Source: an uncultured Planctomycetia bacterium
GTDB taxonomy: Bacteria; Omnitrophota; Gorgyraeia; 1-14-0-20-64-10
Length of the DNA: 64,000 nucleotides
Assembly (NCBI GenBank): GCA_964372395.1
Contig: CAYJQV010000003.1
Span: forward strand, 11,124-75,123
Direction of reading: 5' to 3'
Each line of letters opens with the position of its first letter. The first letter of the stretch is position 1. The notes under the pieces are model-generated. The model was not told where the DNA came from and did no database searches. It saw nothing but the letters and a program-made list of their open reading frames with translations. Made by a program: the position numbers and the translations under genes. This document shows positions 3,852-52,575 of the stretch, piece by piece.

Positions 3852-4384
3852 AGCTTTCCGTCATCGCGGCCGTCGCCCGAAACGGGGTGATCGGCAAAGG
3901 GGGCCGCCTGCCCTGGCATCTGCCGGCCGACCTGAAGCGCTTCAAGACACTGACCCTCGGCCACCCCGTCATCATGGGCCGCAGGACCTTCGAGTCGATC
4001 GGGAAACCGCTCCCCGGCCGCACCAACATCGTCGTCACGCACGAGAGAGACCTGAAGATCTGCGGCTGCCTGGTGGCCCCATCCTTCGAGAAGGCCCTGG
4101 AACTCTGCAATCAAGCTGAGGAGGCGTTCGTTCTGGGAGGTGCGAGCCTCTATGAACAGGCCTTGCCCCGGGCCGATCGGCTCTACCTGACCCGAATCCA
4201 TGCCGATTTCGAGGGGGACGCCCGGATGCCCCCTCTGGACTTAAGTCGCTGGAAGGAGATTTCCCGCGAGGACTTCTTGAGCGAGCCTCTGCCCTACAGC
4301 TTCATCACCTACGGGGGACGCTCCACTTTGGGACACACTGGTTGTGGAGGAGTGTCCCAAAGTGGAGCGTCCCCACATCGATGA
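3848..4384 (+). CDS. folA: dihydrofolate reductase; last ~22 codons encoded by palindromic repeat element
   Basis: A GTG start overlaps the thyA stop (GTGA). [52 protein letters not shown] is DHFR-family sequence. The tail [22 protein letters not shown] lies inside repeat element A. Confidence 0.85.
4314..4374. repeat. 61-bp palindromic repeat element, family A, copy 1 (23-bp perfect arms, 15-nt loop)
   Basis: GGGGACGCTCCACTTTGGGACAC-ACTGGTTGTGGAGGA-GTGTCCCAAAGTGGAGCGTCCCC. A near-identical copy is at about 41956-42014. Confidence 0.8.
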
Positions 4385-5811
4385 CGCTGTTTGAGAAGAT
4401 CTGGGAGCGGCACGTCGTGGCGGAGCTGCCCGACGGGAACGCCCTGCTGTACGTCGACCGGCATCTGGTCCACGAGGTGACCAGCCCGCAGGCGTTCGAG
4501 GGGCTGCGCCTCACCCGCCGGAAGGTCCGCCGGCCGGACCTCACCTTCGCCACGATGGATCACAACGTCCCCACCGATGATCGGATGAATATCCGGGACC
4601 CCATCTCCCGAGCGCAGGTGGAGGCCCTGGCCAGGAACTGCCGGGAGTTCGGGATCCCTCTGTACGACTTGAGCTCCGACAAGCAGGGGATCGTCCACAT
4701 CATCGGGCCGGAGCTGGGGCTCACCCTGCCGGGAACCACCGTGGTCTGCGGAGATTCGCACACCTCCACCCACGGGGCCTTCGGGACGCTCGCCTTCGGG
4801 ATCGGGACCTCCGAGGTGGAGCATGTCCTGGCGACCCAGTGCCTCACCCAGAAGAAGCCGAAGACGCTGCGGGTGGAGTTCGCCGGCACCCTGCCCCCGC
4901 ACGTGAGCTCCAAGGACATGATCCTCAAGCTCATCGGAACGATCGGAACCGCGGGCGGGACCGGCACCGTTTTCGAGTACACGGGCGAGGCGGTCCGGCG
5001 CCTCTCCATGGAGGCCCGGATGACGATCTGCAACATGTCGATCGAGGCCGGCGCCCGGGCCGGGATGATCGGGCCGGACGAGACCACCTTCAACTACATC
5101 AGCTCAGGGAACCGGCCCTTCGCGCCAAAAGGGAGGGCGCTGGAGCAGGCCATCTCCTTCTGGAAGAGTCTGCCGAGCGATCCGGACGCCGCCTTCGACC
5201 GCTCGGTCAGCATCAATTGCTCCGCCCTCGCCCCGCAGGTCACCTGGGGCACGAATCCCGGCATGGTCACCGACGTGACCGGCCGGGTCCCCTCGCCCGA
5301 TGGCGTGCCCGGATACACCGCAAGGGACGTGGAGCAGGCGCTGGCGTACATGGGGCTTGTCCCGGGCACCCCGATCACCAGGATCCGGGTGGACGCGGTC
5401 TTCATCGGAAGCTGCACCAACGCCCGGATCGAGGATCTGCGGACGGCGGCCAAGATCCTGAGCGGCCGCAAGGTCGCGCCGGGCGTGCGCGTGCTGGTCG
5501 TTCCCGGCTCCCAGCAGGTCCGCGCCCAGGCGGAAGCGGAAGGGCTGGATGAGATCTTCAAGGCGGCCGGATGCGACTGGCGTCAATCCGGCTGCAGCAT
5601 GTGCCTCGGGATGAATCCGGATCAGCTCAGGCCGGGCGAGCGGTGCGCTTCCACGTCCAACCGGAACTTCGAGGGCCGGCAGGGGAAGGGCGGCCGAACC
5701 CATCTGGTCAGCCCGGAGATGGCCGCGGCCGCCGCCCTCGCGGGTCATTTTGTCGACATCCAGAGCTGGCTGGGGTCAGACCCTCTGGGGTCTGACCCCA
5801 GTAGGGTTTGA
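4381..5811 (+). CDS. leuC: 3-isopropylmalate dehydratase large subunit
   Basis: [20 protein letters not shown]... with the aconitase-family Cys ligands. I place the start at the ATG overlapping the folA stop, whereas the ORF-track start at 4342 lies inside the repeat. The C-terminal [12 protein letters not shown] is encoded by the 15-mer repeat. Confidence 0.9.
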
Positions 5812-8711: not shown

Positions 8712-9836
8712 CTAGCCCAGCTCCAGCACCCTGGGGAAAGAGGTGAGCTTCTCGCAGCCGGTTTCGGTCACGAGGAGATCGTCCTCGATCCGGATGCCGC
8801 CGGCATCGAGGTAATAGAGCCCCGGCTCCACCGTGACCACCTGGCCCGCCTTCAGCAGATCCGGAACCGGGCTGATCCTGGGCGGCTCGTGGATCTCCAG
8901 GCCGAGGCCATGGCCGGTCCCATGGAAGAAGCCCTGCATCCGTCCGCCCTGTTCGCCGGTCGGAAAGCCCTGCTGGGTGAAGTGATCGAGGATCTTCTGG
9001 TGGATCTTCTGGCCGTCAACCCCGTCCCGGATCATCCCGAAGGCGATCTCCTGCCCCTCCAGCACGGCCCGGTACATCTTCTTCACCTTGTCGGAGGGCC
9101 TGCCTTTCACCACGGTCCGGGTGATGTCCGCGTAGTAGCGGCTTGTCAGGGAGACAGGGAAAACGTCCAGGACGATGGGCCAGTGTGCCTTGAGGACGCC
9201 CGAGCCGATGCAGTGGGGGTCGCAGGCCTGCGTGCCACCCGCGACGATGGTCTCGCGAGCCAGACAATCGGACCCCATGAGGGTCAAGTGGAGCGTCTTG
9301 CGGATGAGCTCCGAGGTGAGCGGCCGGCTGCGCAGCCAGAGGTCGCCGTCCTTCACCTCCGCCTCGGCAATGAGCCCGATGGCGGACTTCAGCGCCTCCT
9401 CCGTCTTCTGGGCGGTCTGGCGGATCGCCTCCAACTCCTCCGGGCTCTTGATCATCCGTCGCGGAAAGAAGGGGTCGCTTCCGGCCTCCAGCGTGTAGCC
9501 CTTCCCGCGCAGCTTATCCGCGAGCGCAACCGGGAAGGAGGCCGGCACGCGGAGCCGCCGGATCTGCCGCTCTCGAAAGAGGAGGTCCAGCACCTCTGCC
9601 GTGCCGGAGCGCTCCGCCCCCCTCTTCTTCGCCTCCGCCTGGAGCTTCGAGAGGGAAAGGACCTCGTCCACCTTCGCCTCGCTCCTCGCCCGATCCACCT
9701 CCAGGTCGCTCATGACCAGCGTCTTCCGGCCGTCCGCCTGGACGAAGATAAAGGAGTCCGGTGCCCAGAAACGGGTCGCCCAGTAGAGGTTGGCGTCCTG
9801 CTCGCTCGCCGCAACGATCAGGATTGCTTCATCCAC
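8712..9836 (-). CDS. M24-family Xaa-Pro aminopeptidase/dipeptidase
   Basis: 374 aa with an N-terminal creatinase-like domain and C-terminal metal ligands typical of PepP/PepQ (...HGTGHGLGLEIHEPP..., GIRIEDD). Confidence 0.85.
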   Translation of the reverse strand: MDEAILIVAASEQDANLYWATRFWAPDSFIFVQADGRKTLVMSDLEVDRARSEAKVDEVLSLSKLQAEAKKRGAERSGTAEVLDLLFRERQIRRLRVPASFPVALADKLRGKGYTLEAGSDPFFPRRMIKSPEELEAIRQTAQKTEEALKSAIGLIAEAEVKDGDLWLRSRPLTSELIRKTLHLTLMGSDCLARETIVAGGTQACDPHCIGSGVLKAHWPIVLDVFPVSLTSRYYADITRTVVKGRPSDKVKKMYRAVLEGQEIAFGMIRDGVDGQKIHQKILDHFTQQGFPTGEQGGRMQGFFHGTGHGLGLEIHEPPRISPVPDLLKAGQVVTVEPGLYYLDAGGIRIEDDLLVTETGCEKLTSFPRVLELG

Positions 9837-10305
9837 CGTAGTGCCAGCCCGTTTCCTTCAAGGTGAGCGGCTCCGCCGGCTTCCCCAGCCCCGCCTCCAC
9901 CACCTCGCCGACAACGATGGAGTGGTCGCCCGCCGGATGGATCGCCCGGACCCTGCACTCCAGGAAGGCCGGCGCCTCCTCAAGGATCGGCGCACCGGTC
10001 GAACCCGCACGGTGGGGAACCCCGGCCAGCTTGTCGCCCCCCAGGTGCGCCGGCTTGATGAAGTGCTGGGCGAGCGGCTTCTGGCCGGCCCCGAGCAGGT
10101 TCACCGCAAAAACGCCCGAGGCCTCGATCATCTGGAAGGAGAGACTGTCCTTGCGCACCCCCAAGGCGACCAGCGGCGGCTCGAAAGAGATCTGCGTGAC
10201 CCACGTGGCGGTGAAGGCGTTGCGGCGCTCGCCGTCGCAGACGCCGATCACGTAGACGCCGTGCACGATCCGGCGCAGCGCCTGCTTCTTCACCTCAGGA
10301 TCCAC
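9829..10305 (-). CDS. flavin reductase-like (FMN-binding split-barrel) protein
   Basis: RRIVHGVYVIGVCDGERRNAFTATWVTQISFEPPLVALGV... is the flavin reductase family. I place the start at the GTG at about 10303-10305; the longer upstream ORF-track extension is low-complexity and overlaps repeat locus 2. Confidence 0.75.
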   Translation of the reverse strand: MDPEVKKQALRRIVHGVYVIGVCDGERRNAFTATWVTQISFEPPLVALGVRKDSLSFQMIEASGVFAVNLLGAGQKPLAQHFIKPAHLGGDKLAGVPHRAGSTGAPILEEAPAFLECRVRAIHPAGDHSIVVGEVVEAGLGKPAEPLTLKETGWHYGG

Positions 10306-10306
10306 C

Positions 10307-10349
10307 GGGGTCAGACCCTCTGGGGTCAGACCCTCTGGGGTCTGACCCC
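10307..10349. repeat. 15-bp dyad repeat family B, locus 2 (two direct units + one inverted unit, tail CTATAGGGGTTATG)
   Basis: GGGGTCAGACCCTCT GGGGTCAGACCCTCT GGGGTCTGACCCC, intergenic between divergent genes. Confidence 0.8.
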
Positions 10350-10371
10350 AGCATGGTATGCTATAGGGGTT

Positions 10372-10617
10372 ATGTCGCTCATGCCGAAGCTGCTCTTGGT
10401 TCTCCTCTTGACCGCCGCCGTCAACCTGCCGTTCGGTTACTGGCGCCAGGGCCTCAAGAAATTCACCCTGCCCTGGTGGCTCGCCATCCACCTGCCGATC
10501 CCCCTCATCATCGCCTTCCGGATCGGCCTGGGGATTCCGTACTCCACGGTCCCGCTGGTCATCGCCTCCGCCGTCGCCGGCCAGTGGGCCGGCGGCCGGC
10601 TGAGGAAGCCCCGCTGA
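10372..10617 (+). CDS. small hydrophobic membrane protein (~81 aa)
   Basis: MSLMPKLLLVLLLTAAVNLPFGYWRQGLKKFTLPWWLAIHLPIPLIIAFRIGLGIPY... has two to three TM helices. It overlaps the 3' end of cbiX on the opposite strand. Confidence 0.5.
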   Translation: MSLMPKLLLVLLLTAAVNLPFGYWRQGLKKFTLPWWLAIHLPIPLIIAFRIGLGIPYSTVPLVIASAVAGQWAGGRLRKPR

Positions 10618-22042: not shown

Positions 22043-22346
22043 GGCGGCGGACAAGGTGCGTTCCCTGCAGCGGCAGGAGTCCAAGGAGGGATACGCCCTG
22101 CGGCTGCGCGTGGTGGGCGGCGGCTGCTCGGGCTATTCCTACAGCATGGACTTCGAGCAGAACCCCGGGCAGGGGGATCTGACGTTCGAGGATCATGGGG
22201 TGAAGATCCTCGTGGATCCGAAGTCCCTCGCCATGATCGACAACAGCCAGGTGGACTGGGTGGACGGGATGACGGGGGCCGGCTTCACCCTGCAGAATCC
22301 CAACGCCAAGGGGACCTGCGGCTGCGGGCACTCCTTCACCGTCTGA
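22017..22346 (+). CDS. A-type Fe-S carrier (SufA/IscA/ErpA family)
   Basis: ...GYALRLRVVGGGCSGYSYSMDF... and the C-terminal CGCGHSF motif with three conserved Cys. Confidence 0.85.
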   Translation: MEMITLTDKAADKVRSLQRQESKEGYALRLRVVGGGCSGYSYSMDFEQNPGQGDLTFEDHGVKILVDPKSLAMIDNSQVDWVDGMTGAGFTLQNPNAKGTCGCGHSFTV

Positions 22347-22414
22347 CGGACTTGGTCATCCCCGCGCTGACGGACTTGGTCATCCCCGCGCTGACGGACT
22401 TGGTCATCCCCGCG
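22344..22414. repeat. 24-bp tandem direct repeat x3 starting at the A-type carrier stop codon (TGACGGACTTGGTCATCCCCGCGC), ending in GC hairpins
   Basis: Units sit at about 22344-22367, 22368-22391 and 22392-22414. The last unit runs into the hairpin CCCCGCG-aaa-GCGGGG and then GGGAG-cgga-CTCCC. Confidence 0.75.
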
Positions 22415-40087: not shown

Positions 40088-41200
40088 CTAGCCCCCCACC
40101 ACCATCTTCATCGCCTGCATCAGCCCCTTGAGGTCCGCTTGCAGCAATTGGCCCATGTGCGCCACGCGGAAGATCTTGCCCTGGAGCTCGCTCTGTCCTG
40201 CGTAGATCACGTAGCCCGCCCTCTTCAACCCGTCGTGGATCTGCGCGTAGCTCCTAGCCTGGGGGAGCCACAGGGCGGTCAAGGTGTTGGAGAGGAGCTT
40301 CTCCTCCAGAAGGAGCTTCAGCCCCAGCTTCCTGAAGCCCTGCCGGAGAAACGCCGCCCGCTGCCGGTAGCGGGCGATCCTCACCTTCAGCTTCTCCCGG
40401 ACCAGCTCATCCAGCGCTGCGTCGAACGCCGCCACCAGAGGAACGGCCGGCGTGAAAGGCGGATCCCCGGCCTCCTGCGACTTGAGCTGCAACGCCAGGT
40501 CCAGGTAGAGCGAACGGGGCTTGAGCTTTGCCACCCGCGCCGTTTCCTCATCCGACAGGAGCACGAAGGAGAGGCCCGGGGCGCCGTGCAGGCACTTCCC
40601 CGCCGAGCCCACGCAGATCCCGATGTGATGCTTCGTCAGGTCCAGCGGCTCCGCACCCAGGGCGCTGATGGCATCCACCAGAAGCCGCCGGCGGTACTTC
40701 TTCGCCAGACCCGCCACCTCCTCCACCGGGTTGAGCATTCCCGTCGAGGTCTCGTGATGCACCATCGCCACCGTCCCGATCTGACCATCCCGCCTCAGCG
40801 CCGCTGAAACACGGCCCAGGTCCGGCCGCTCGGTCACGGGGGAGCGGATCTCGACGCAGGGAATCTCATGGATCCGCGCGATCTGCGCCAGGCGCGAGCC
40901 GTACACCCCGTTGTTGATGACGAGCAGCTTCCTGCTTCCGTCCAGGCAGCTCAGGAGCGCCGCTTCGAGCGCCGCTGTCCCCGAACCGCCGATGATCACG
41001 CAGCTGTAGCGGTGGTCCAGCCCCAAGGCATGCACCAGCTTCGCCCGGACCGTCTGGAGGAGCTGGCTGAACTCCGGCTCCCGGTGGCAGATGTCCGGCC
41101 CGCCCAGCGCCGCCTTGACATGCGCGCTGGTGTTGACCGGGCCGGGGCAGAGCAGGATCTGGCGGCGGCTCACGGGCCGCGGCGCGGGTGCAGCGGGCAT
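40088..41200 (-). CDS. phnW: class V aminotransferase, 2-aminoethylphosphonate:pyruvate transaminase-like
   Basis: AGXT/PhnW-like core (...ILLCPGPVNTS...VHHETSTGM...GSAGKCLHGAPG...). My start choice is M69; the upstream 68 codons of the ORF track are Arg/Ala-rich low-complexity sequence. Confidence 0.7.
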   Translation of the reverse strand: MPAAPAPRPVSRRQILLCPGPVNTSAHVKAALGGPDICHREPEFSQLLQTVRAKLVHALGLDHRYSCVIIGGSGTAALEAALLSCLDGSRKLLVINNGVYGSRLAQIARIHEIPCVEIRSPVTERPDLGRVSAALRRDGQIGTVAMVHHETSTGMLNPVEEVAGLAKKYRRRLLVDAISALGAEPLDLTKHHIGICVGSAGKCLHGAPGLSFVLLSDEETARVAKLKPRSLYLDLALQLKSQEAGDPPFTPAVPLVAAFDAALDELVREKLKVRIARYRQRAAFLRQGFRKLGLKLLLEEKLLSNTLTALWLPQARSYAQIHDGLKRAGYVIYAGQSELQGKIFRVAHMGQLLQADLKGLMQAMKMVVGG

Positions 41201-41393
41201 CGGCGTCGGCGCAGCCGCCGGCGGCGGCTCCGCCGCTCTCCGCTTCGGAACCGGCCTGCGCGCTGCCAGCCGCCTGCGGGCGACCCGCCGGGCGGCCCTG
41301 CGCGCGCTGAGCTTCCTGCGCCTTCTCGCCTGAGCTGCCCGACGCGCTCGGCTTGGTCCACCTGCTCGGCCTGCCCGATCCGCTCGACGACCC

Positions 41394-41957
41394 TTACGAT
41401 GCATTCATCGCCTCCTTGAATCGGTCGGTGATCTCCTCCGGGGAAAGCCGCACCCGCTCCGCGGGGGCCGCCGTATCCGGCTGACACTTCACCAGAAGAA
41501 AAGCCGGACCGGCGCTGGAGCGAACCTCGCGCCACGCGGCTGCCAGCTCCCCCGGATCCCGGGCCGTCCGCACCGCCGCGTACCCACAGGCCGACGCCAC
41601 TGCCGAAAGCGCCACGCGGTCGGAGTAGGTGGCCTGATTTCCCGTCGAGGCATACGCCTCGTTGTCCAGGGCCACGTGAATCAGCCGCCTCGGCCCAATC
41701 GCCCCGATCATCCCCAGCACCCCCATCCCCATCAGGATCGCCCCGTCCCCGTCCAGCACCACCACAGGAAGCTCCGGCCGGCACAGGGCAATCCCCAGGC
41801 CGATCGGCGCCGCCAGGCCCATCGACCCGATCATGTAAAAATTGCCCGGCCGGTCCGCGCAGGCCTGCATCTCCCGGCAGGTGTAGCCGGTGGTGCAGAC
41901 CACCAGCTCCTCCTCGAGCTGCCCGGCGAGGATCCCGATCGCCTCCCGCGTCGTCAT
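41394..41957 (-). CDS. TPP-dependent phosphonopyruvate (or sulfopyruvate) decarboxylase, beta subunit (C-terminal TPP-binding domain)
   Basis: ...GSMGLAAPIGLGIALCRPELPVVVLDGDGAILMGMG...ALDNEAYASTGNQ... (TPP motif GDG-x24-N). My start choice is MTTREAIG, overlapping the alpha-subunit stop. Confidence 0.75.
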   Translation of the reverse strand: MTTREAIGILAGQLEEELVVCTTGYTCREMQACADRPGNFYMIGSMGLAAPIGLGIALCRPELPVVVLDGDGAILMGMGVLGMIGAIGPRRLIHVALDNEAYASTGNQATYSDRVALSAVASACGYAAVRTARDPGELAAAWREVRSSAGPAFLLVKCQPDTAAPAERVRLSPEEITDRFKEAMNAS

Positions 41958-42506
41958 TGGGGACGCTCTACTTTGGGACACTCCGGTTGCTGGTGTGTCC
42001 CAAAATGGAGCGTCCCCCGGATCAGGAGGGCCGCCGGGATCCGCTCCCTTCGCATGAAGGCGTCCGCCCGGCCGATCGCCTCGCCGAGCTCCCCCGGCTC
42101 CGGAACCCAGACCGGAATCCCCACCTGCCGCAGAAGCGCCTCACAGTGCCGGCCCATCACCCGGTGCTCCGGCGCGTCCTTCCCCTGATACCCCCTGTAG
42201 CCCACCAGGAGCATCGCCGGAATCCGGTAGATGAGATTGAGCGAGGTCAGCGCATTGAGGCAGTAGCCGATCCCCGAATTCTGCATGAGGACCGCGGGCC
42301 ACCGGCCCGCCAGATATGCCCCAGCGGCAAGCCCCACCGCCGCGTCCTCACGAACCGCTGGGACGTATCCGACCGGATCCTGCTCCAGCTGCTCGATGAG
42401 GGAGGCCACCAGGGAATCCGCCACCCCCGTGAAAAAATTGAAGCCGCAGCCCTTCAGGGATCCCAGGCACCCTTCCGCCGCGCCGACCGCGCCCGCCAAC
42501 TTCATG
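41954..42506 (-). CDS. TPP-dependent phosphonopyruvate (or sulfopyruvate) decarboxylase, alpha subunit (N-terminal PYR domain); last ~20 codons encoded by repeat element A
   Basis: MKLAGAVG...[18 protein letters not shown]...[34 protein letters not shown]... is the ComD/Ppd N-terminal domain. The start overlaps the hpnH stop (ATGA). Confidence 0.75.
41956..42014. repeat. palindromic repeat element family A, copy 2
   Basis: GGGGACGCTCTACTTTGGGACAC-TCCGGTTGCTGGTGT-GTCCCAAAATGGAGCGTCCCC, with arms about 95% identical to copy 1 and a related loop. Confidence 0.8.
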
Positions 42507-43563
42507 ATTGACGCCCGCGGCCGTTGCCTGTCGGGCGCCGCGCGTGCCCGTTGCCCGACGGACCCCGTGCGGGCCGCAGCGCATGCAGCATGTTCCCGAG
42601 AGACCGCGTCGCATCCGTCACCGCGGTCGGCTCGTATCCGCAGTGAACCATGCAGTCGGCGCAGCGCGGGTCGCGCCCCGTCCCGTACCGCTCCCACGGG
42701 GTCTCTTCGATCAGCTCCCGGAAGCTCCGGACGTAGCCGTCGCTCATCAGGTAACAGGGTTTCTGCCAGCCGAAGATGTTTCGGGTCGGATTTCCCCACG
42801 CGGTGCACTGGTAATCGCGGTACCCCTGGAGGAACTCGAGGAAGAAGGCGGAATGGTTGAACCGCCAGCGGGGATCCGCGTTGTCCAGGATCTGGCGGAA
42901 GAGCGCCTTCGTCTGCTCTCTCTGCAGGAAATGCTGCTGGTCCGGCGCCTTCTCGTAGGGATAGCCCGGCGAGATCATCATCCCGTCCACCCCCAGATCG
43001 GTCAGGAAGTCGAACATCCGCCGGAACTCCTGCGGATCGGCCCCCAGGAAGATCGTCGTGTTGGTGGAGACGGAGAAGCCGGCCTCCTTCGCCGCCCGTA
43101 TCCCCTCCACCGCCTGGCGGAAAACCCCCTTGCGGCAGACCGCCCGGTCGTGGGTCTCCTCCAGGCCGTCGAGATGGATGCTGAACCGGAAGTAGGGAGA
43201 GGGCCGGTACTCCCCGAGCTTCTTGGTCAGCAGGATCGCGTTCGTGCAGAGGTAGACGAACTTCCTGCGCCGGACCAGCCGCTCGGCGATCTCCGGCATC
43301 TCCGGATGAACGAGCGGCTCCCCGCCCGCGATCGAGACGACCGGCGCCCCGCATTCGAGGGCCGCCTCCTCGCATTCCTGCGGGGAGAGCCGTTTCTTCA
43401 GCATCTCCTCGGGATACTGGATCTTGCCGCACCCGGCGCACTCCAGGTTGCAGCGGAAGAGCGGCTCCAGCATGAGGACGAGGGAAAACCTCTCCAGCCC
43501 CCGCAGCTTCTGGGTGAAGACGTGCCGCGCCACCGCAAGCCCCTGCCGCCACGCGACCGCCAT
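42502..43563 (-). CDS. hpnH: hopanoid biosynthesis radical SAM protein (adenosylhopane synthase)
   Basis: Radical [11 protein letters not shown] with HpnH-like downstream sequence. I place the start at MAVAWRQ, about 43561-43563; the upstream ORF-track extension overlaps shc in another frame and is rejected. Confidence 0.85.
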
Positions 43564-43571
43564 GAAGCCCC

Positions 43572-45596
43572 CTAGTCCCTCAGCCGCTGCCTGGCTTCGC
43601 TCAGGGCCAGGAGCGGAAAGATGACCCGGTACAGGTGGTATTTCAGATAAAAGACGCGCGGAAAACCGGTCCCGGTGAACGGCTCCTCGGCCCAGTCCCC
43701 CTCTTCCCGCTGGGTCCGGAGGAGAAACTCCAGCCCCTTCCGGAAGGCCGGTTCCCCGACCCACCCCAGACTCATCAGCGCCATCAGCGCCCATGCGGTC
43801 TGGGATGCAGTGGAAACTCCTCGGCCCTTCTCGGCAGGATCGTCGTAAGACCGGCAGCTCTCCCCCCATCCCCCGTCCGGATTCTGGTGAGTGACGAGCC
43901 AGCGGCCGGCCTGCTGATACCGGATGCCCTCCATCGGCTCTCCCGAAAGCAGGAGCCCCCGCAGGGCCAGCCAGCTCCCATACGTGTAGTTGACCCCCCA
44001 TCGCCCGAACCAGGTGCCGTCCGCCTCCTGCCGCTCCCGCAGGAAACGGACGCCCCGCCGGACCGCAGGATGACCCTTCGGCAGGCCCGCCGCATGCGCC
44101 AGCTCCAGCATCCGCCCGGTGATGTCCGCCGCCGAGGGATCCAGCATCGCGTTGTGGTCGGCGAACGGGAAATGGGTGAGCGCCTGGCGGTCGTTGTCCT
44201 TGTCGAACGAGCTCCAGCCCCCGTCCCGATTCTGCATGCTCAAGACCCACTCCAGCCCCCGCCGGAAAGCCCCCTCGAAATCCACCCGCTGTGCCGTCGC
44301 GGCACCGTGCGCCGTGGTGCCGGGCCGCGCCGCTCCGCCGCGCATCTTCTTGAGCGCCAGGAACGCCAGCAGGACCTGGCCGGTGTCATCCACGTCCGGG
44401 TAGAATGGATTCCTGAACTCGAACGCCCAACCGGCCGGCTTTCCCCCGGGGTTCTTGACCACCCAGTCGCCCCAGATCCGGATCTCCTGGCCGAGCAGCC
44501 ACTCCACCGCCCGCTCCAACGCCGCGTCCAAACCCGGTACCAGGTCCCGTTCGGTACCTGGTACCGATTGGGCCGCCTGCGCGAGCGCGTAGGCCGCCAG
44601 CGCCGTGTCCCAGACCGGAGAAAAACAGGGCTGCACCTTCAGATCGTCCCCCTCCTCCAGATCCAGCCGCTCCAGCTCCCGCAGCGACCGCTCGAAGAGG
44701 GGATCCCCGTCGGAGTAACCCAGGGATTTCAGCGCGAAGACGGCGTTCAGCATCGCCGGGAAGATCGCCCCCAGCCCGTCCGTCTCCATGAGGCGCTCGG
44801 TGATCCATCGGTCGGCGCGCCGCAGCGCCAACTCCCGCAGCGGCTTCCAGCCGGAGCGCTCGCAGAGCTTGAGCAGGCGGTTCGCTCCGAGGAAGAAGAA
44901 GCGCCATCCGGCCCCTCCCTTCTGCAGATTGGTGGCCCGCGCCCGCTTGCGCGCCGGGTCACGCCACAGCTCCTCCAGCGAGAACGGCGCCCGGACCCAC
45001 GCCGGCCGCCCGGCGTACACCACCGAAAGGGGGACCAGGATCGTGCGGGACCAGCAGGAGATCTCGTAGATGTTGAACGGGAACCAGCGCGGCAGGAGGA
45101 TGAGCTCCGGCGGCAGGGCTGGAACCTGATCCCAGGGATACAGGCCGAAGAGGGCCAGGTACACCTTCTCAAAGCTGTTCACCCGCTCCAGGCCGCCCAC
45201 CCGCAGGATCACCGCCCGTGCCCGCTGCAGGATCTCCTCCTGCGGCCCGTGCCCGGCCAGCCGGAGCGCCACGTACGCCTTGACCGTCACGTTGAGCTCC
45301 GCCGGGCCGCCCTGGTAGATGGGCCACCCGCCGTCGGGAAGCTGATTCTTCAGGATCGTCCGGACGAGCCGCGCCTGGCGGAGCGGATCCACGCGGCCCA
45401 GCAGGTGCATGAGCTTGACGGTGTCCGACTCGAGGCTCGTGTCCGCCTCCAGCTCCCCGCACCAGTACCCCTCCGGCGCCTGCCGGCCCAGGAGGAACCG
45501 GCCCGCCCGCTCGATCGCATCGTCGATCGAGCCGGCCGGGGTCCGGCCCGGTTCAACGAGCACCGCCGGGCCGGATCCGACGGGGCTAATGGACAT
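43572..45596 (-). CDS. shc: squalene-hopene cyclase
   Basis: 674 aa with multiple QW motifs ([48 protein letters not shown]) and the catalytic DxDDT-type motif DVDDTG. Confidence 0.95.
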
Positions 45597-47499
45597 AGAC
45601 CGTTCCCCGCTCCAGCAGCTCCCGTGCGGCCAGCTCGATCGCCTCCGGCGTGAGGCGCGCCTCCTTCAGGAGGATCTCCCGCTTGCCGTGTTCGAAGAAC
45701 CGGTCCGGGATCCCCATGACCCGCATCTTGAGGCCGTTCCGCATCCGCTCCAGCTCCACCATGAGCCGGGATCCAAATCCGCCGATCTGCGCCGCCTCTT
45801 CCACGGTGAGGATCGCCTGGTGCCCGGTGACCAGTGACACGCAGAGCTCCATGTCCAGGGGCTTCACGAACCGGGCGTTGACCACCGTCGTTGAGATCCC
45901 CCTCTGCTCCAGGAGCCGCGCCGCCTCCATCGCCGGATACACCATGCTGCCGAGGGCCACGATCGCCAGGTCGGAGCCGCGCCTCAGCACCTCCGCCCTG
46001 CCCAGCCGGATCGGCTCCGGCTGCGGCGGCATCTCCAGCTCCAGCTCCGGATGGAACCGCAGGGCTCCCCCGCGCGGATACCGCAGCGCGATCGGCCCCC
46101 GATGCCTGCATGCAAACTCCAGCATCGCCTCCAGCTCATCCGGGTCCTTCGGCGCCATGAAGACCAGCCGCGGCAGCGCCGACAGATACGCCACATCGAA
46201 AACGCCGTGGTGCGTGATCCCGTCGTCCCCCACCAACCCCGCCCGGTCCATGCTGAAGATGACCGGCAGGTTCTGGATGCAGACGTCGTGGATCACCTGG
46301 TCGTAGCCCCGCTGCAGGAAGGTGGAGTAGACCGCCGCCACCGGCTTCAAGCCGCCGCGCGCCAGCCCGGCCGCAAAGGCCACCGCGTGCTGCTCGCACA
46401 TCCCCACGTCGTAGAACCGCTCCGGCATCTGCTGGGCGTATTCCACCAGCCCGGTCCCGTCCGGCATCGCAGCGGTGATCGCGATGAGCCGCGGCTCCTC
46501 CCTCGCCAGCCGGATCATCGCCCTGCCGAACCGCTGGGTGAACGTCTCCGCCGAGGGCTTCTTCAGGAACTCGCCCGTCGCCGGATCGAACGGGGTGACG
46601 CCGTGGTACTTCCACTGCTCCTTCTCCGCCAGCGGATACCCCCTGCCCTTCGTGGTGCGCACGTGGAGCAGCCTCGGTCCCGGCAGCTCCTTGACGTGGC
46701 GGAGGGTTTTGACAAGAAGCTCGACGTTGTGGCCGTCGATCGGCCCGAAGTAGCGGAAGCCCAGCTCCTCAAAGAGGATGCCCGGAACGAGCAGGTTCTT
46801 CAGCGATTCCTCCAGCCGCTTCGCCGCCCGCAGGATCCGGTAGCCGAACCGGGGAATCCGGCACATCACCCGCTCCACCTCCCGTCGCACCCGGTTGTAG
46901 AGGGGATCGGTGATGATCCGGTTGAAGCAATGGGTCAGGGCGCCGATGGCGGGGGCGATCGCCATATTGTTGTCGTTCAGGATCACGAGGAAATCGCTCT
47001 TCACATGACCGGCGTGGTTCAGGCCCTCCAGCGCCATTCCCTCGGGCAGCGACCCGTCCCCGATCACCGCCACCACCTTGTAACGCTCCCCCTGGTGATC
47101 CCGCGCCCGCGCCAGCCCCAGCCCGGTTGAGATCGAGGTCCCGCCGTGCCCGATGGTGAACAGATCGTGGGGGCTCTCCTCCCGGTGCGGGAAACCGGAG
47201 ATCCCTCCCCATTGCCTTAAGGTCCCGAACCGCTCGCGCCGGCCGGTCAGGATCTTGTGGGCGTAGGCCTGGTAGCCCACGTCCCAGACCAGCTTGTCCT
47301 CCGGCGTGTTGAAGACGTAATGGAGGGCCACCACCAGATCCACCGCCCCCAGCGGCCCGCCGAAATGGCCGCCGGTCTTGGAAACCTTGTCGATGATGAG
47401 CTGCCGGATCTCCTGCGCGACGTTCGGCAGGGCGCAGAGGGGCAGACCCCTCAGATCCGACGGCTGGTTGATCCTCTCCAGAAGGCTCTCGCTCATCAC
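45586..47499 (-). CDS. dxs: 1-deoxy-D-xylulose-5-phosphate synthase
   Basis: 637 aa; TPP-binding GDG...N, transketolase-like PYR and C-terminal domains; Dxs-specific N-terminus (...GGHFGGPLGAVDLVVALHYVF...). Confidence 0.95.
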   Translation of the reverse strand: MMSESLLERINQPSDLRGLPLCALPNVAQEIRQLIIDKVSKTGGHFGGPLGAVDLVVALHYVFNTPEDKLVWDVGYQAYAHKILTGRRERFGTLRQWGGISGFPHREESPHDLFTIGHGGTSISTGLGLARARDHQGERYKVVAVIGDGSLPEGMALEGLNHAGHVKSDFLVILNDNNMAIAPAIGALTHCFNRIITDPLYNRVRREVERVMCRIPRFGYRILRAAKRLEESLKNLLVPGILFEELGFRYFGPIDGHNVELLVKTLRHVKELPGPRLLHVRTTKGRGYPLAEKEQWKYHGVTPFDPATGEFLKKPSAETFTQRFGRAMIRLAREEPRLIAITAAMPDGTGLVEYAQQMPERFYDVGMCEQHAVAFAAGLARGGLKPVAAVYSTFLQRGYDQVIHDVCIQNLPVIFSMDRAGLVGDDGITHHGVFDVAYLSALPRLVFMAPKDPDELEAMLEFACRHRGPIALRYPRGGALRFHPELELEMPPQPEPIRLGRAEVLRRGSDLAIVALGSMVYPAMEAARLLEQRGISTTVVNARFVKPLDMELCVSLVTGHQAILTVEEAAQIGGFGSRLMVELERMRNGLKMRVMGIPDRFFEHGKREILLKEARLTPEAIELAARELLERGTVYVH

Positions 47500-47505
47500 C
47501 GGCTC

Positions 47506-48369
47506 CTAGGATTCCCGCGTCAGGATGAACCGGGCCAGCGCCCGCAGCGGCTCCGCCTTCTTCCCCAGCGGCCGCAGATCCCGGATCGCCGACTCGGTGA
47601 GGAGTGCCGCCTTTCTCTGGACCTTGGCCTCGCCCCAGAGGGGCACCAGCCCGTCGCTGTCCAGCAGATCATCCACCATCTGAAAGACCAGGCCCACCTT
47701 CCGCCCGTACCGGCAGAGGGCCTGGTACGCCGAAGGCCTGGCCCGGCCGAGCAGCACCCCCACCCGAACCGACGCCGCGATGAGTGCGCCGGTCTTCCGG
47801 GTGTGGATCTCTTCGATCCCCCGCCCGGTCGGCCGGCCCCTGCCGGTGCGCCCGTTCCTGCCGTTCGCGCGCCCGTCGCCCGCGGTGACATCCGAGACCT
47901 GGCCGCCGATCATTCCCCGGGTCCCGATCGCCTCGGCGACCTCCCGGGCGACCTGCAGATGGGTGGTGGAATCATGGTTGGCGCGCGTCAGCATCTCGAA
48001 GGCCCGGGTGAGCAGGGCATCCCCTGTCAGGACCCCGATCGCTTCACCGAACTTCTTGTGGCAGGAGGGCTTGCCCCGACGGAAATCGTCGTCATCCATC
48101 GCCGGCAGATCGTCGTGGACCAGGGAGTAGGCATGGATCATCTCCAGCGCGCAGGCGGCGTCAAGCGCCGAGCCGACGCGGCCGCCGGCCGCCTCGCAGG
48201 CGGCCAGGGCCAGGATCGGCCGGATCCGCTTGCCCTGCCCGAGCACGCTGTACCGCATGGCCCGGTGGATGACCTCCGGCTGCCTTGCCGGTCCCGGGAG
48301 GGCCCTCTCCAGCGCCCGGTTGACAAGGGATTGACGCTGTTCCAGGTAGGACTTGAGGTTCATGGACAA
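47506..48369 (-). CDS. ispA: (2E,6E)-farnesyl diphosphate synthase / polyprenyl synthetase
   Basis: First and second aspartate-rich motifs LVHDDLPAMDDDDFRRG and FQMVDDLLD. Confidence 0.9.
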   Translation of the reverse strand: MSMNLKSYLEQRQSLVNRALERALPGPARQPEVIHRAMRYSVLGQGKRIRPILALAACEAAGGRVGSALDAACALEMIHAYSLVHDDLPAMDDDDFRRGKPSCHKKFGEAIGVLTGDALLTRAFEMLTRANHDSTTHLQVAREVAEAIGTRGMIGGQVSDVTAGDGRANGRNGRTGRGRPTGRGIEEIHTRKTGALIAASVRVGVLLGRARPSAYQALCRYGRKVGLVFQMVDDLLDSDGLVPLWGEAKVQRKAALLTESAIRDLRPLGKKAEPLRALARFILTRES

Positions 48370-48378
48370 CCTTGTATT

Positions 48379-49767
48379 TTACCGACCGTCCGTTGAGGAG
48401 GCAAGCCATTTCAGGGCGGCCGCGCTCGCCTTCTCGCCGCTCACCACAGCCGATTCCACGGTTGCCGGCAGGCCGGTCGCAGTCCAATCCCCGGCCAGGA
48501 AGAGCCCCTCAAGCCCTGTTTCCGCGCCGGGCCGCAGCCGCTCCAAGCCCACGGTCAACGAAACGGTCGCCTCCCGCTCCCGGACCACCTGCGCCCGCAC
48601 AAGCCCGGCCCCGGCGGCCGCCGGGAAACAGCGGCGCAGGTCCTCCAGCGCCGATTGGATCAGCGCCTCGTTGGAGAGCCCCACCTCCTCATGCGCCGCG
48701 CTCAGGATGAGCGAGACGTAGCTGGCCTGTTCACGGGAGGCGCGCAGGATGCCCGCCTTGTTGAACAGCCACTGGAACCGCGTGCCGAGCAGCGCCACAA
48801 ACGCCTCCTCGCAGACCGGCCGGTCGAGCCAGAGATTCACGGAGACAATCGGCGAGGAATGGAATCGGGCCAGGATCCCGCGCAATCCCGCGGCTTCTCC
48901 TGCACCCTCGGGAAGAAGCCGCAGAAGCACCGATGGCGGAACCGCGCTCACCACCGCTGCCGCCTCCACGCGGGTCCCATCCGGCAAGGTGACACCGGTC
49001 ACCCGGCCCCGTTCAAAGAGAAGCCCCGCGGCAGGCCGGTTCAGGAGAACCCGTCCTCCCCGGCCCTCGATTGTCCGCCGGGCCTGCTCCGTGTAGAGGT
49101 CGCTCAAGCCCACCGACGCCATCCCCAATCGCGAGCAGCCGCGTGGCCGGAACATCATCGTGCCCAGCACCTGCTGCAGCCCGGCCACCGATGCGCGGGA
49201 GGGATCCTCGTTCAGCACCGCCACCGCGAGAGGATTCCAGAAGCGGGTCCGGCTCCGGCTGCCCTGCCCCATCCGCTCCAGCCACTCCTCCACCGTCTCA
49301 CCCCGGCCCGACGTCCCTGAGGCCCCTTCGGTACGGCGTACCGAACTCCGCCGTACCGAATTCGAGAGGGCCCACCAGCCCAACCGCTCCCGCCATCCGA
49401 ATCCCGGCAGGCGGGAGATCCCCAGGAAAAGGTGCCAGGGCGCGGGCACCGGTGGGCAGTCCAGAACCGTCGTCCGCCCCCCCGGCTCGACGAACCCGAC
49501 CCGCAGGTGATCCTGAAAGAGGAGCCGGTCGCGGGTCCCCAGCCGCTCCAGAAAGGCGAGCGTCCTGTCGTAGCCGGCCAGGAAGAGATGCTGGCCGTTG
49601 TCCACCACTTCCCCGCTCGCCGGATCGGTGAAGGAGCGGGCCCTGCCTCCCAATCCCACCCGGCTTTCCAGAACGGTGACCGGCACACCCGCGTCGGCAA
49701 GCGCGACCGCCGCCCGCAGGCCGGCGAAGCCGCCTCCGATTACGACGACCGCCTTGTCAGCAGGCAC
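48379..49767 (-). CDS. hpnE: hydroxysqualene dehydroxylase (FAD-dependent amine-oxidase family)
   Basis: FAD Rossmann VVVIGGGFAGLRAA with an amine-oxidase fold, positioned after hpnC-hpnD. Confidence 0.85.
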   Translation of the reverse strand: MPADKAVVVIGGGFAGLRAAVALADAGVPVTVLESRVGLGGRARSFTDPASGEVVDNGQHLFLAGYDRTLAFLERLGTRDRLLFQDHLRVGFVEPGGRTTVLDCPPVPAPWHLFLGISRLPGFGWRERLGWWALSNSVRRSSVRRTEGASGTSGRGETVEEWLERMGQGSRSRTRFWNPLAVAVLNEDPSRASVAGLQQVLGTMMFRPRGCSRLGMASVGLSDLYTEQARRTIEGRGGRVLLNRPAAGLLFERGRVTGVTLPDGTRVEAAAVVSAVPPSVLLRLLPEGAGEAAGLRGILARFHSSPIVSVNLWLDRPVCEEAFVALLGTRFQWLFNKAGILRASREQASYVSLILSAAHEEVGLSNEALIQSALEDLRRCFPAAAGAGLVRAQVVREREATVSLTVGLERLRPGAETGLEGLFLAGDWTATGLPATVESAVVSGEKASAAALKWLASSTDGR

Positions 49768-50621
49768 TGCAGCCCGGCCCAGAGCTGGCGCGACCGGGGA
49801 ATCTGAATCCGGTGGCTGAAGACATCGTACCCGACCGCCTCAATCCGCTTCAGGATGCGGGAATAGACCGCACCCATCACCCGAGCCGGGACGAGCCGCC
49901 GCCCTTCAGCCGCCTCCCCCATCGCCTGCTCCGCCTCCTGGAAAAAGGAGCGGGCGCGCGCGCACTCAAACTCCGCCAGCCGCCGGAACGATCCCGACAT
50001 CCGGCCCTTCGCCAGATCCTCCTCCCGCACGCCGAACCGGTCCAGATCCTCCCCGGGGAGATAAACCCTGCCCTGCTCGGCATCCGCCTTCACGTCCCGC
50101 AGGATGTTCGTCAGCTGCAGCGCGATCCCGAGTGAAACCGCATACCGGTCCGAGGCGGGGTGCCGGCAGCCGAACACCCGCACGGAGATGAGGCCCACGA
50201 CCGAGGCCACATGCTCGCAGTAGACCCTCAGCTCCCCGAAGGTCCGGTACCGGCGCCGGTGCAGATCCATCTCCACCCCCGTGACCAGCTTCTCGAGGTA
50301 GGCGGCCGGGATCCGGAACCGCTCCCGGACCGGCTCCAGCGCCACCAGGATCGGATGCGTCGGCATCCCCTGGCCTGCAGCCGCCAGCTCCCGCCGCCAC
50401 CGGTCCAGCTCCCTCTGCGCCTCCTGGGGCTGCGCGTTGTCCCGGTCCACCGCATCGTCCACCGCCCGGCAGAAGGCGTACACCGCCTCCATCGCCTGTC
50501 TCCGCGCAGCCGGCAGGACCCGGAAGCTCAGGGAGAAATGGCTCCCCGCGCGGCCGGTCAGCCAGCGGCAGTAACGATGGGCGGCCTGCCGCCCCAGCCC
50601 GCCGTCAAGGGAGGAGCGCAC
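49740..50621 (-). CDS. hpnD: presqualene diphosphate synthase (squalene/phytoene synthase family)
   Basis: Squalene/phytoene synthase fold (...AVYAFCRAVDDAVD..., ...GIALQLTNILRDVKAD...). It is the second of two tandem family members, as in hpnCDE. Confidence 0.85.
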   Translation of the reverse strand: MRSSLDGGLGRQAAHRYCRWLTGRAGSHFSLSFRVLPAARRQAMEAVYAFCRAVDDAVDRDNAQPQEAQRELDRWRRELAAAGQGMPTHPILVALEPVRERFRIPAAYLEKLVTGVEMDLHRRRYRTFGELRVYCEHVASVVGLISVRVFGCRHPASDRYAVSLGIALQLTNILRDVKADAEQGRVYLPGEDLDRFGVREEDLAKGRMSGSFRRLAEFECARARSFFQEAEQAMGEAAEGRRLVPARVMGAVYSRILKRIEAVGYDVFSHRIQIPRSRQLWAGLQCLLTRRSS

Positions 50622-51546
50622 GGCCCAGAAGCCCCATCTTGCAGAGTTTCGACAGAACAGGCCGGCCCCTGAAGACGTCGTACCGGAGCCCCTCGATCCG
50701 GTCGAGGATCGCCCGGCCGCCCAGCAGGGTGAGCTTCAGCTCCAATCGGAGCGGCCCGGACACTGCCCGGATGAGCGGCTCCCCTTCGTCGAAGAGCCGC
50801 CGCGCCCGCCCGACCAGATCCGCCATGAGGGCCCGGAACGACGGGGTCAGACCCCGTGGGGTCAGACCCCGTGGGGTCAGACCCCGCGGGGTCAGACCCC
50901 AATAGGTTTTAAGCTCCTCTTCGGAGACGCCGTGCTCCCGCATCAGCGAATGCGGAACGTACAGCATCCCCCTCGCCCAGTCGATCCGCAGATCCTGCCA
51001 GTGGTTGGTGAGCTGCAGCGCCGTGCAGATCCGGTCGGACTGCTCGTGCAGCGCCGGCTCCCCGATCCCGAACGCCAGCAGCACCAGCCGGCCGACCGGA
51101 TTCGCCGAGTACCGGCAATAGGTCAGAAGCTCCTCCCAGTCGGCGTACCGCTTCTTCGTGACGTCCATCCTGAAGGCGGTGAGCAGGTCGTCGAGCAGCT
51201 GGACCGGCAGGCCGCGCCGCCGCACCGTGTCGCCGATCGCCAGGAAGATCGGGTGGCCGTTCAGAGCGGCGCCTGCCGGCCGTGCCGCCTGCCCCGCTCC
51301 GTCCCCGCACGCCGCCCGCAGCGCCGCCCGCCAACGCTCCAACAGCTCCAGCGACCGGCCCCGGTATTTCAGCTCATCCGCGAAATCATCCGCCGACCTC
51401 GCAAAGGCGTAGATCGCGGCGATGTGCGGGCGGACAGCCCGGGGCAGCAGCCACGACGCCACAGGGAAATTCTCGTAGTGGCCATAGGTGATCCACTCGC
51501 AATAGCGGTACGCCTGAGCCAGCTGCGGTTCCATGACCTGAACCAT
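50605..51546 (-). CDS. hpnC: hydroxysqualene synthase (squalene/phytoene synthase family) carrying an in-frame 20-aa GLTPR x4 repeat insertion
   Basis: ...AAIYAFARSADDFADE..., ...CTALQLTNHWQDLRID.... The internal WGLTPRGLTPRGLTPRGLTP is encoded by four 15-bp family-B repeat units. Confidence 0.85.
   Translation of the reverse strand: MVQVMEPQLAQAYRYCEWITYGHYENFPVASWLLPRAVRPHIAAIYAFARSADDFADELKYRGRSLELLERWRAALRAACGDGAGQAARPAGAALNGHPIFLAIGDTVRRRGLPVQLLDDLLTAFRMDVTKKRYADWEELLTYCRYSANPVGRLVLLAFGIGEPALHEQSDRICTALQLTNHWQDLRIDWARGMLYVPHSLMREHGVSEEELKTYWGLTPRGLTPRGLTPRGLTPSFRALMADLVGRARRLFDEGEPLIRAVSGPLRLELKLTLLGGRAILDRIEGLRYDVFRGRPVLSKLCKMGLLGRALLP
50843..50913. repeat. 15-bp dyad repeat family B, locus 3 (four direct units, tail AATAGGTTTTAAG), inside hpnC coding sequence
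   Basis: GGGGTCAGACCCCGT x2, GGGGTCAGACCCCGC, GGGGTCAGACCCC. Confidence 0.8.
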
Positions 51547-52575
51547 CTAGCGTTTGAAAGGGAACGAGAGGGAGCGGCTGCGCCCCTGAATCTTCCTCAG
51601 GAGATTCCGGATGAACCGCCCCTCCGCGTGCCTCCACTCCGCCGGCCGATCCGGATGCCGGATCGGGATTGATCCGCCGGCCATCGACCAATGCCCTCCG
51701 GCGCGCACCTCCTCCTTCAGCACCTTCTGGAGCAGCCGGCCGGCATGCACGCCGGGCCGCGTCGCACGCAGGGACAGGTGCAGGCGATCCCTGTACCGCC
51801 CCGTGCAGACCGACCAGCGCATCCCCTCGCAGGTGAGCAGGAAATCGGCCGTCTGAGAGACCAGATCCGGGGTGCCCACCGGCCCCAGATGCGTCCCGAT
51901 CAAAGGGCCCGCCACGAACGCATTCTCCAGGGAGCGCATCACCGTCTGAAAGAACTCCTTCGGCCGCTGGGGATTCTGGATGAGCGCCAGGGCCCGCAGG
52001 TCGCACAGCGGCAGGAGCTGGCGGTAGGTCTTCATCTCCAGCTCTCCCGTCATCCTTCCCAGGTCCTGCGTCTCGGACAGGATCCCGTACACGAGCGCCG
52101 TGGCGAGATTCTCCGGCACCGGCCACCGGACCGCGAAGAGCGCCTGCGCGAGGAGGACGCTGGTCGCCCCCACCTGCGGCTCGATCACCGAACAGGCGGC
52201 GGAGCCGCCCTCCGTCGGAGGATGATGGTCCACCACGATCGCCGCCCGCCTCTCCTTCGGAAACGCGTTGTTCCCGAAGAGCGGCTGGGTGTCCACGAGC
52301 GCGATCGCCTTGAAGCGCGCGAAATCGGCCCGCCGGCGAAGCGGCCGGATCGGCACCCGCAGGACCCGCACCATCGTCTGGTTCTCCATCCGGCCGATGA
52401 TCCCCCCGTGCACGATCCGCGTTTCCAGGCCCGCCAGCACCCTGGCCAGATGGCTCAGGGCCCAGGCGCTGGCCACCGCATCCGGATCGGGATGGTCATG
52501 GGTGAGGATGAGCAGCGGGCCCAGATCCCGCCCCTGCCGGCGAAGAAAGCGAACCAGCCGATGGGCCGCGCGCAT
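51547..52575 (-). CDS. DHH/DHHA1 phosphoesterase (NrnA/DhhP-like; candidate c-di-AMP/pApA phosphodiesterase)
   Basis: Motifs ILTHDHPDPDAVAS, VVDHHPP and DHHA1 GGGH-like AGGHWSMAGGS. Confidence 0.8.
   Translation of the reverse strand: MRAAHRLVRFLRRQGRDLGPLLILTHDHPDPDAVASAWALSHLARVLAGLETRIVHGGIIGRMENQTMVRVLRVPIRPLRRRADFARFKAIALVDTQPLFGNNAFPKERRAAIVVDHHPPTEGGSAACSVIEPQVGATSVLLAQALFAVRWPVPENLATALVYGILSETQDLGRMTGELEMKTYRQLLPLCDLRALALIQNPQRPKEFFQTVMRSLENAFVAGPLIGTHLGPVGTPDLVSQTADFLLTCEGMRWSVCTGRYRDRLHLSLRATRPGVHAGRLLQKVLKEEVRAGGHWSMAGGSIPIRHPDRPAEWRHAEGRFIRNLLRKIQGRSRSLSFPFKR

Follow-up and report, generated by a model that had tools for sequence, protein, structure and literature searches.

A 13-bp palindromic repeat, probably REP-like, dispersed and translated in frame within hpnC and leuC of a bacterium related to Omnitrophota

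A family of 13-bp palindromes set 15 bp apart recurs at three loci in the 64,000-nucleotide stretch of DNA analyzed here (hereafter the window), which covers positions 11,124 to 75,123 of contig CAYJQV010000003.1 (assembly GCA_964372395.1), from an uncultured bacterium named Planctomycetia and placed in the Omnitrophota by GTDB. The repeats lie inside hpnC, which codes for the squalene synthase HpnC, at the 3′ end of leuC, and in an intergenic region. Our preferred account, to which as a whole we assign a probability of about 65%, is that they are copies of a hairpin-forming, non-autonomous element resembling repetitive extragenic palindromes (REPs), that these copies were mobilized by a transposase of the RAYT-like Y1 type known as TIRYT, and that the resulting arrays changed in length by replication slippage. 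Counting units with at most one mismatch to the consensus GGGGTC[A/T]GACCC[C/T], whose 13-bp core is GGGGTC-A/T-GACCCC, we obtained nine across the three loci, against 1.19 ± 0.97 expected from 100 dinucleotide-preserving shuffles, none of which reached nine. The dispersed family with a related tail at three loci, which an earlier reading of the sequence had proposed (the original prediction), is therefore real. Tandem Repeats Finder called all three arrays, each with a period of 15.

The arrays differ in the number and orientation of their units. Inside hpnC there are four perfect direct GGGGTCAGACCCC units (50843..50900) with spacers GT, GT, and GC. The LeuC C-terminus carries a hairpin doublet of an A-unit and a T-unit in inverted orientation (5770..5801), which reads GGGGTCAGACCCT-CT-GGGGTCTGACCCC at 5772-5799, and the intergenic array (10307..10349) has three units in the order A, A, T (GGGGTCAGACCCT-CT-GGGGTCAGACCCT-CT-GGGGTCTGACCCC). 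All the A-units start with GGGGTCAG and all the T-units end with CTGACCCC. The original prediction described each core as a 6-1-6 palindrome, which is accurate for six of the nine units; the remaining three end in CCCT, so their dyad is reduced to 5+1+5 plus a G.T position. When we scanned the window for other palindromes of the pattern G4-xy-N-y′x′-C4, none was found. Further copies do exist in the same genome: a fourth array, again with units in the order A, A, T and here with both tails, lies in locus L112 (3378-3420), some 0.8 kb upstream of where the window begins. This brings the total to four arrays in the 68 kb of host genome analyzed (the window and 4 kb beside it), three of them within coding sequence or at its 3′ end and one in a promoter-like region. 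As for the tail, it is AATAGGTTT at the hpnC array (50901..50909, plus strand; AAACCTATT on the coding strand), where it is the outer arm of the element, and, as read from the sequence, AGTAGGGTTT together with the leuC stop codon TGA (5809-5811) at 5800..5811 on the plus strand. The claim that a tail follows every locus holds in that one is present at each, but at the intergenic locus it is displaced: TATAGGGGTT (10362..10371, plus strand) stands directly 5′ of an ATG at 10372, and 12 nt separate it from the array.

The anatomy of the element becomes clear in a metagenome-assembled genome (MAG) of the Omnitrophota, JACPXU01, where the complete form is a palindrome of about 46 bp, AAACCTAAC-GGGGTCTGACCCC-GC-GGGGTCAGACCCC-GTTAGGTTT, and the conserved tail is the outer arm of this larger palindrome. 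The consensus of the outer arm, (G/A)TTAGGTTT, is found on about 60-70% of flanks, and the copies in the window retain it on one side only. The pair at 5772 is best read as a single hairpin with a 14-bp stem (5770-5783 with 5788-5801) and a 4-nt loop; for the whole 54 nt the folding energy is −35.9 kcal/mol (z = −5.6), and for the 83 nt of RNA around the hpnC array it is −54.5 kcal/mol (z = −6.7). Overall, folding energies around doublets and arrays lie between −35.9 and −57.3 kcal/mol, and z between −3.2 and −7.1. Short GC-rich stem-loop palindromes, commonly arranged as inverted doublets, are what is expected of a REP-type element. At the three complete copies that we read (L014 3569, L075 3651, and L112 3378), no target duplication was visible, which fits Y1 rather than DDE transposition. 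A search of the whole window with Rfam at gathering thresholds gave no match, and no Rfam family fits the repeats.

The link to a transposase comes from other genomes. REP families, intragenic REPs, and RAYT-like TIRYT genes with flanking inverted repeats that share the sequence GGGGWSAS have all been described (Di Nocera, De Gregorio & Rocco 2013, PMC3733652), and most TIRYTs have been assigned to subclass 2.1 of TnpA_REP, with the motif GGGG[AT][CG]A[CG] (Quentin et al. 2018, PMC6006769). The beginning of the A-unit, GGGGTCAG, fits the GGGGWSAS end motif of the TIRYT inverted repeats. Moreover, at the plasmid gene RRU_RS19765 of R. rubrum ATCC 11170 (L201; Pfam Y1_Tnp, 45 bits), TTAAAAGGGGTCAGACCCC starts at −55 with the 13-mer at −49, and GGGGTCTGACCCCTTTTAA comes directly after the stop codon, so that the two flanks are an exact A-unit and an exact T-unit. 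The core is identical to the ends of Y1 transposase genes in other genomes, and given the exact 13-mer pair at this gene, an A-unit followed by a T-unit, as seen at leuC, corresponds to a left end placed directly against a right end. From this we infer that a TIRYT is present elsewhere in the host genome and moves the copies. A profile made from the TIRYTs of Additional file 5 of PMC3733652 detected no such gene in the window and only one among the 108 repeat loci of the matches listed below, a TIRYT remnant in a gammaproteobacterial MAG (L061) that is bracketed by GGGGTCAGACCCC doublets. This remnant (1016-1474), whose gene is partly masked with N in the record, also has an in-frame unit inside it (YRAMGSDPNQR) and is truncated at its 3′ end by a doublet. 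Terminal inverted repeats with GGGGTCAG or GGGTCAG are found at genes of Iodobacter, Pseudoalteromonas, Hahella, Skermanella, and Bowmanella. The end that contains GGGGTCAG is repeated in tandem two to three times upstream of the TIRYT, with periods of about 13-28 bp, on a Skermanella plasmid (L200, ~380-430) and in Bowmanella (L194, ~1370-1430); amplification of the end motif is thus not peculiar to the window.

We also scanned metagenomes for TIRYT genes, and among the loci with enough flanking sequence the motif was found within 200 bp in 31 of 61 and on both sides in 13 of 61, against a background of 0.029 per 200 bp. The published association between TIRYTs and GGGGWSAS is reproduced in these loci. 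A protein search with the Hahella TIRYT, aimed at genes of Marinobacter or Omnitrophota, reached no further than close relatives in the Gammaproteobacteria, 73-81% identical (with one match of the same genus at 95%), two of which carry inverted repeats of the GGGTCAG type. A literature search on RAYTs of Marinobacter yielded nothing relevant.

The repeat is also widespread. In a scan that took a single genome from each species, pairs of units set 15 bp apart turned up in at least 108 stretches, compared with about 0.001 expected, by our own arithmetic, for uniform sequence of the size of the scan. The matches listed include Candidatus Omnitrophota, Planctomycetia, several Actinomycetota, Acidobacteriota, Gemmatimonas, Scopulibacillus, Marinobacter, and Oxalobacteraceae, and at least seven phyla (Omnitrophota, Planctomycetota, Actinomycetota, Acidobacteriota, Gemmatimonadota, Bacillota, and Pseudomonadota) share an identical 13-mer doublet. 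Across these phyla the core is the same and the flanks differ. In total, at least 181 arrays were counted in at least 108 loci of other genomes, and inverted doublets prevail among the matches listed (118 TA or AT versus 21 AA). Two Candidatus Omnitrophota MAGs hold at least 20 arrays in 12 loci, of which about 6-7 of 20 are internal to genes (GC content at third codon positions of at least 0.8 on both sides) and many others lie at the 5′ ends of genes. Away from any transposase gene, copies occur as singles, dimers, or groups, in the manner of the inverted repeats of TIRYT genes. One of the loci, L027 of MAG JACPXU01, is syntenic with 42.2-48.4 kb of the window at 76% nucleotide identity, which places the host organism near the lineage of that Candidatus Omnitrophota MAG.

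Particularly, the array inside hpnC allowed us to follow the element within a coding sequence. The gene (50605..51534, minus strand) codes for 309 amino acids from its second Met, whereas the longest open reading frame (ORF) extends to 51546 (313 aa); the 309-aa form is on record as an exact protein (P0241) and the 313-aa form is not. Its identity is given by the Pfam domain SQS_PSY (224 bits) and by homologs named HpnC. On the minus strand the repeat reads W-GLTPR-GLTPR-GLTPR-GLTPS, so the four units that had been predicted are there, but they encode GLTPR three times followed by GLTPS rather than four GLTPR. In the AlphaFold model (mean predicted local distance difference test score, pLDDT, of 85.9), the insert is in a coil between helices 209-216 and 235-255, and pLDDT falls below 50 at residues 219-230. 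According to this model, the insert sits in a variable, disordered loop, contrary to the claim that it interrupts a conserved enzyme core. In the hpnC frame the consensus AAACCTAAC would place an in-frame TAA stop, which the intragenic copies avoid by having TAT (in the window and L196) or CAA (in L002); judging from the sequences, this change looks like selection for an open frame.

The number of units in hpnC varies. Contig CAMTXW010000040.1 of assembly GCA_947085785.1 (L001 and L112) is 99.97-99.99% identical to the window over 37 kb, and the sole indel between them is one of 45 bp, or three units, in hpnC, with one unit in that assembly and four in the window, while the arrays at 5772 and 10307 are identical in both. 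These results agree with the view that the 15-bp period preserves the frame while the copy number changes. Both alleles are present in public assemblies, and the four-unit allele was assembled independently twice, as its protein (P0241) is recorded both at NCBI and in a separate Logan assembly of ERR4904391. The gene belongs to a complete hopanoid cluster on the minus strand (40600-51550), known from the annotated twin contig (L001), which comprises hpnC, hpnD, hpnE, a polyprenyl synthase gene, dxs, shc, and an hpnH-like radical-SAM gene.

Not only does the array vary in number, but the loop of HpnC is also occupied by related sequences in several orthologs. In the alignment, the loop lacks the element in the orthologs with 86% (L195, P0002) and 74% (P0003) identity to the HpnC of the window, in support of an insertion. 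At 65% identity, L196 (P0005) has a decayed doublet in the loop and L002 (P0006) has GGGGTCAGGCACC-AC-GGTGCCTGACCCC plus a unit; L003 (P0004; 69%) has a 5′-truncated and slightly diverged version of the latter element, GGTCAGGCACC-GC-GGTGCCTGACCCT plus a unit; and L197 (P0008; 63%) has a sister variant, GGGACAGTCCCC-TTC-GGGGACAGTCCC, with a period of 15. Since the similar residues of these 63-69% orthologs come from the same or a sister palindrome and not from divergent DNA, the insertion reading stands. Either the HpnC loop is a hot spot of insertion or an old copy has been renewed in place. We compared occupied with empty sites (hpnC of L195; shc of L027 against the window), and the loops had diverged too far for insertion borders or a target sequence to be read from them. 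A broader and rather speculative possibility, to which we would give limited credence, is that the element and its TIRYT partner are one ancient cross-phylum system in which new copies home to existing ones, so that the loop would stay occupied through more than 30% protein divergence and the resident would be overwritten by the current variant of each lineage (GGGGTCAG, GGGGACAG, or GGGGTCAGGCACC). If so, selfish DNA would be evolving in concert within a conserved enzyme, and the copy number of the tandem pentapeptide could act as a fast-mutating tuning knob.

The in-frame insertion proposed for the LeuC terminus is also upheld. The gene (3-isopropylmalate dehydratase large subunit; 4381..5811, plus strand) has its Pfam Aconitase domain at residues 5-455 of 476, and its homolog of known structure, 4nqy, ends three residues after aligned position 460 (GxxVD), from which it follows that the element encodes about the last 13 residues of LeuC. 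The ATG of leuD, at 5812, is directly 3′ of the stop codon supplied by the element, and an AGGG located 5 nt 5′ of that ATG is in a Shine-Dalgarno-like position and may act as such. The intergenic array at 10307 is upstream of genes on either side: the start of a flavin reductase gene (9829-10293, minus strand) lies 14 bp away, and an 81-aa ORF (10372-10617, plus strand) begins 22 bp away. The array of L112 lies in frame (MGSDPVGSDPTGSDP) between a NuoE-like domain (residues 10-151) and a NuoF domain (from residue 218) of a fused 601-aa product. Either the element has joined what were two cistrons, which is possible, or the gene may have been called wrongly.

Other coding sequences carry the element as well. 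In-frame copies were found in tgt (two, L014), in an MBL-fold gene of Marinobacter (four, L052), in hpnC of L002 (two), and in shc of L027 (one), while shc in the window has no such copy. At the variable loop that matches the doublet site of L027, the shc of the window (44290-44340, minus strand) carries GGCACCACGG...CACGGTGCC, which resembles the inner part of GGGGTCAGGCACC-AC-GGTGCCTGACCCC and may be a relic. The Marinobacter gene (Marinobacter sp. SS8-8, L052 4561-6198) is a single 545-aa gene with four in-frame doublets (KGSDPxGSDP), the densest intragenic load that we saw. The unit is open in five of its six reading frames, encoding GVRP, GSDP, GQTP, GSDP, and GLTP, and the closed frame is GGG-GTC-TGA. 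The residues encoded by the open frames are small and turn-prone (G, S, D, P, T, L, Q, R, V). With five open frames and residues of this kind, copies at cistron junctions and in surface loops are tolerated and translated in this compact genome.

We propose that the copies spread in trans through the action of a single-strand DNA transposase (TIRYT) encoded elsewhere in the genome. The enzyme would act on the single-stranded hairpin form, and no target duplication would result. The action of TnpA_REP of E. coli on REPs provides the analogy for such mobilization, which also draws on the discussion of Di Nocera, De Gregorio & Rocco (PMC3733652). Once landed, direct 15-bp units would expand and contract by replication slippage, aided by the very stable hairpin, in steps that would preserve the frame, and slippage is the presumed cause of the difference between one and four units in hpnC. 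The HpnC loop, the LeuC tail, and the linker between NuoE and NuoF are examples of sites where copies are tolerated.

Nevertheless, several observations weigh against this account. Neither a profile hidden Markov model, nor phmmer, nor a motif scan detected a Y1 or TIRYT gene in the 68 kb of host sequence. Among the 108 repeat loci of the matches listed, the same methods found such a gene in only one (L061), a weak count considering that about 0.6 would be expected by chance, and a search for RAYT and IS200 genes (tblastn, phmmer, and a HUH...YxxxNP regular expression) in the window and these 108 loci produced one weak match only. At the 80 metagenomic TIRYT loci the ends are mostly GGGGACA[CG], and GGGGTCAG occurs at none of them. 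TIRYTs are not known from biochemical work to move their own repeats. In addition, the tail (G/A)TTAGGTTT does not carry the canonical GTAG or CGTC tag, and on the strand that reads G-T-(T)-A-G it lies 3′ of the core, the opposite of the canonical polarity; GTAG is 5′ of the stem in canonical REPs (PMC3733652), and only the tail of the leuC copy reads GTAG. The identity of the core across phyla may partly reflect convergence, as there are only 16 possible G4-xy-N-y′x′-C4 stems. Finally, the difference between one and four units in hpnC is known at the level of assemblies, not of reads.

These reservations must be set against the alternatives. The arrays could be purely local variable-number tandem repeats, each palindromic 15-mer having arisen where it now lies, without any mobile origin, and then multiplied by slipped-strand mispairing. 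Their tandem arrangement, the strict period of 15 bp, and the difference of exactly three units between near-identical assemblies are all congruent with this idea. Slippage, however, accounts for changes in copy number and not for dispersal: the identical 13-mer and tail are found in unrelated genes and intergenic sites of the host genome, the 76%-identical relative has copies at sites that are not orthologous (shc, for one, carries a copy in L027 and none in the window), and the copies elsewhere are mostly inverted doublets. Dispersal largely refutes this explanation, which we consider improbable, and the minisatellite reading in the original prediction stands only insofar as the repeats are tandem and variable in number. 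Somewhat less probable still is a miniature inverted-repeat transposable element of a DDE transposon. Tn3-family inverted repeats begin with GGGGTCTGAC and are 38 bp long; the first 10 bases of the T-unit are the same as their tip, which together with the inverted ends of the element made this family one candidate. But the match stops at those 10 bases, there is neither a 5-bp nor any other target duplication at the three complete copies, no DDE transposase is nearby, and it is Y1 genes that the exact 13-mer brackets.

The least probable explanation is that the 6-1-6 dyads are operator sites of a dimeric transcription factor, as the original prediction had suggested by analogy. Although the 13-mer is a perfect dyad and the array at 10307-10349 lies between divergently transcribed genes, the share of the host arrays found in or at the end of coding sequence (three of four), together with about one third of the arrays in the Omnitrophota relative being internal to genes, speaks against it, as do the identical core amid different flanks in at least seven phyla and its presence on both sides of transposase genes. 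A CRISPR-like reading was considered as well and rejected. A different question is whether copies are kept because their RNA or DNA hairpins have a role at operon junctions, where they might stabilize mRNA, act as attenuators, or couple translation. Such roles have been proposed for REPs and MIRUs, and they are compatible with the origin that we favor. The stability of the folds (z of −5.6 to −6.7), the stop codon and AGGG that the leuC/leuD copy provides just before the leuD ATG, and the many copies immediately 5′ of gene starts in the relative all point in this direction. Yet for copies in intragenic loops no role as RNA is apparent, sites of very different context carry one and the same sequence, and no Rfam family matches it, so we hold such a function to be unlikely in general, though clearly less so than the three explanations above.

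Considering known systems, the closest are the inverted repeats of TIRYTs (“TIRtrons”), which share the GGGGWSAS ends and occur away from the gene as singles, dimers, or groups (PMC3733652, PMC6006769). The element described here differs in being a self-complementary 13-mer, in forming 15-bp arrays of up to four units, in its GTTAGGTTT outer arm, and in having no TIRYT in the 68 kb. It resembles the REP, REPIN, and BIME systems with their RAYTs in E. coli and Pseudomonas in that short GC-rich hairpins are dispersed, mostly as inverted doublets, at operon junctions and in association with HUH Y1 genes, but it lacks a GTAG or CGTC tag of canonical polarity, its unit is 13 bp instead of 20-40 bp, and a large share of its copies is intragenic, so that the host arrays depart from the predominantly extragenic location of REPs. 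Intragenic REPs of this sort have already been described in Opitutus terrae, Thauera, and Xanthomonas recB (PMC3733652). Like them and the Rickettsia elements RPE-1, RPE-4, and RPE-6, ours is an in-frame palindrome adding 5-30 residues to proteins that are conserved elsewhere along their length, with different repeats at one gene site in related species; unlike them, it belongs to another sequence family (RPE-1 exceeds 100 bp) and shows a strict 15-bp period, pentapeptide repeats, and copy-number polymorphism. The MIRU-VNTR loci of Mycobacterium have non-palindromic units of 40-100 bp, are exclusively mycobacterial, and have no link to Y1 transposases. They are similar in having tandem units that are a multiple of three, intercistronic junctions with overlapping stop and start signals, and copy numbers that vary between strains, but the unit found here is 15 bp long and palindromic in a host related to Candidatus Omnitrophota, so membership in the MIRU class, one of the suggestions made from the sequence, does not apply. 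The other suggestion, a small non-autonomous insertion module, was close to the mark.

A literature search for the exact motif returned no paper describing this sequence as a bacterial repeat element. The class of repeats, the doublets, the link to a transposase, and the in-frame insertion in genes have all been published, and it is the specific sequence that we did not find there; the element does not reveal a new kind of system. It does offer a clean example of selfish palindromic DNA that is translated as part of enzymes, both housekeeping ones and those of the hopanoid pathway, in a lineage related to Omnitrophota that has received little study. Exact identity at gene ends also ties a very short repeat of 13 bp to the TIRYTs, a branch of the HUH transposases on which little work has been done. 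The most noteworthy parts are the polymorphism of hpnC, a potential strain marker, and the repeatedly occupied loop of HpnC. Annotation is also affected, as many MAGs will contain GSDP, GLTP, or GQTP insertions, false N-terminal extensions, fusions of NuoE and NuoF, and spurious ORFs.

Besides the repeats, the window holds a 730-aa ORF beside leuD (6413-8605, minus strand) that has no Pfam match on record in the twin contig. Three perfect tandem copies of the 24-bp sequence CTGACGGACTTGGTCATCCCCGCG (22343-22414) also occur, starting from the stop codon of a 109-aa ORF; they bear no relation to the 15-bp family. The product of this ORF ends in GTCGCGHSFTV and looks IscA/ErpA-like, and a CCCCGC/GCGGGG hairpin lies downstream of the repeat.

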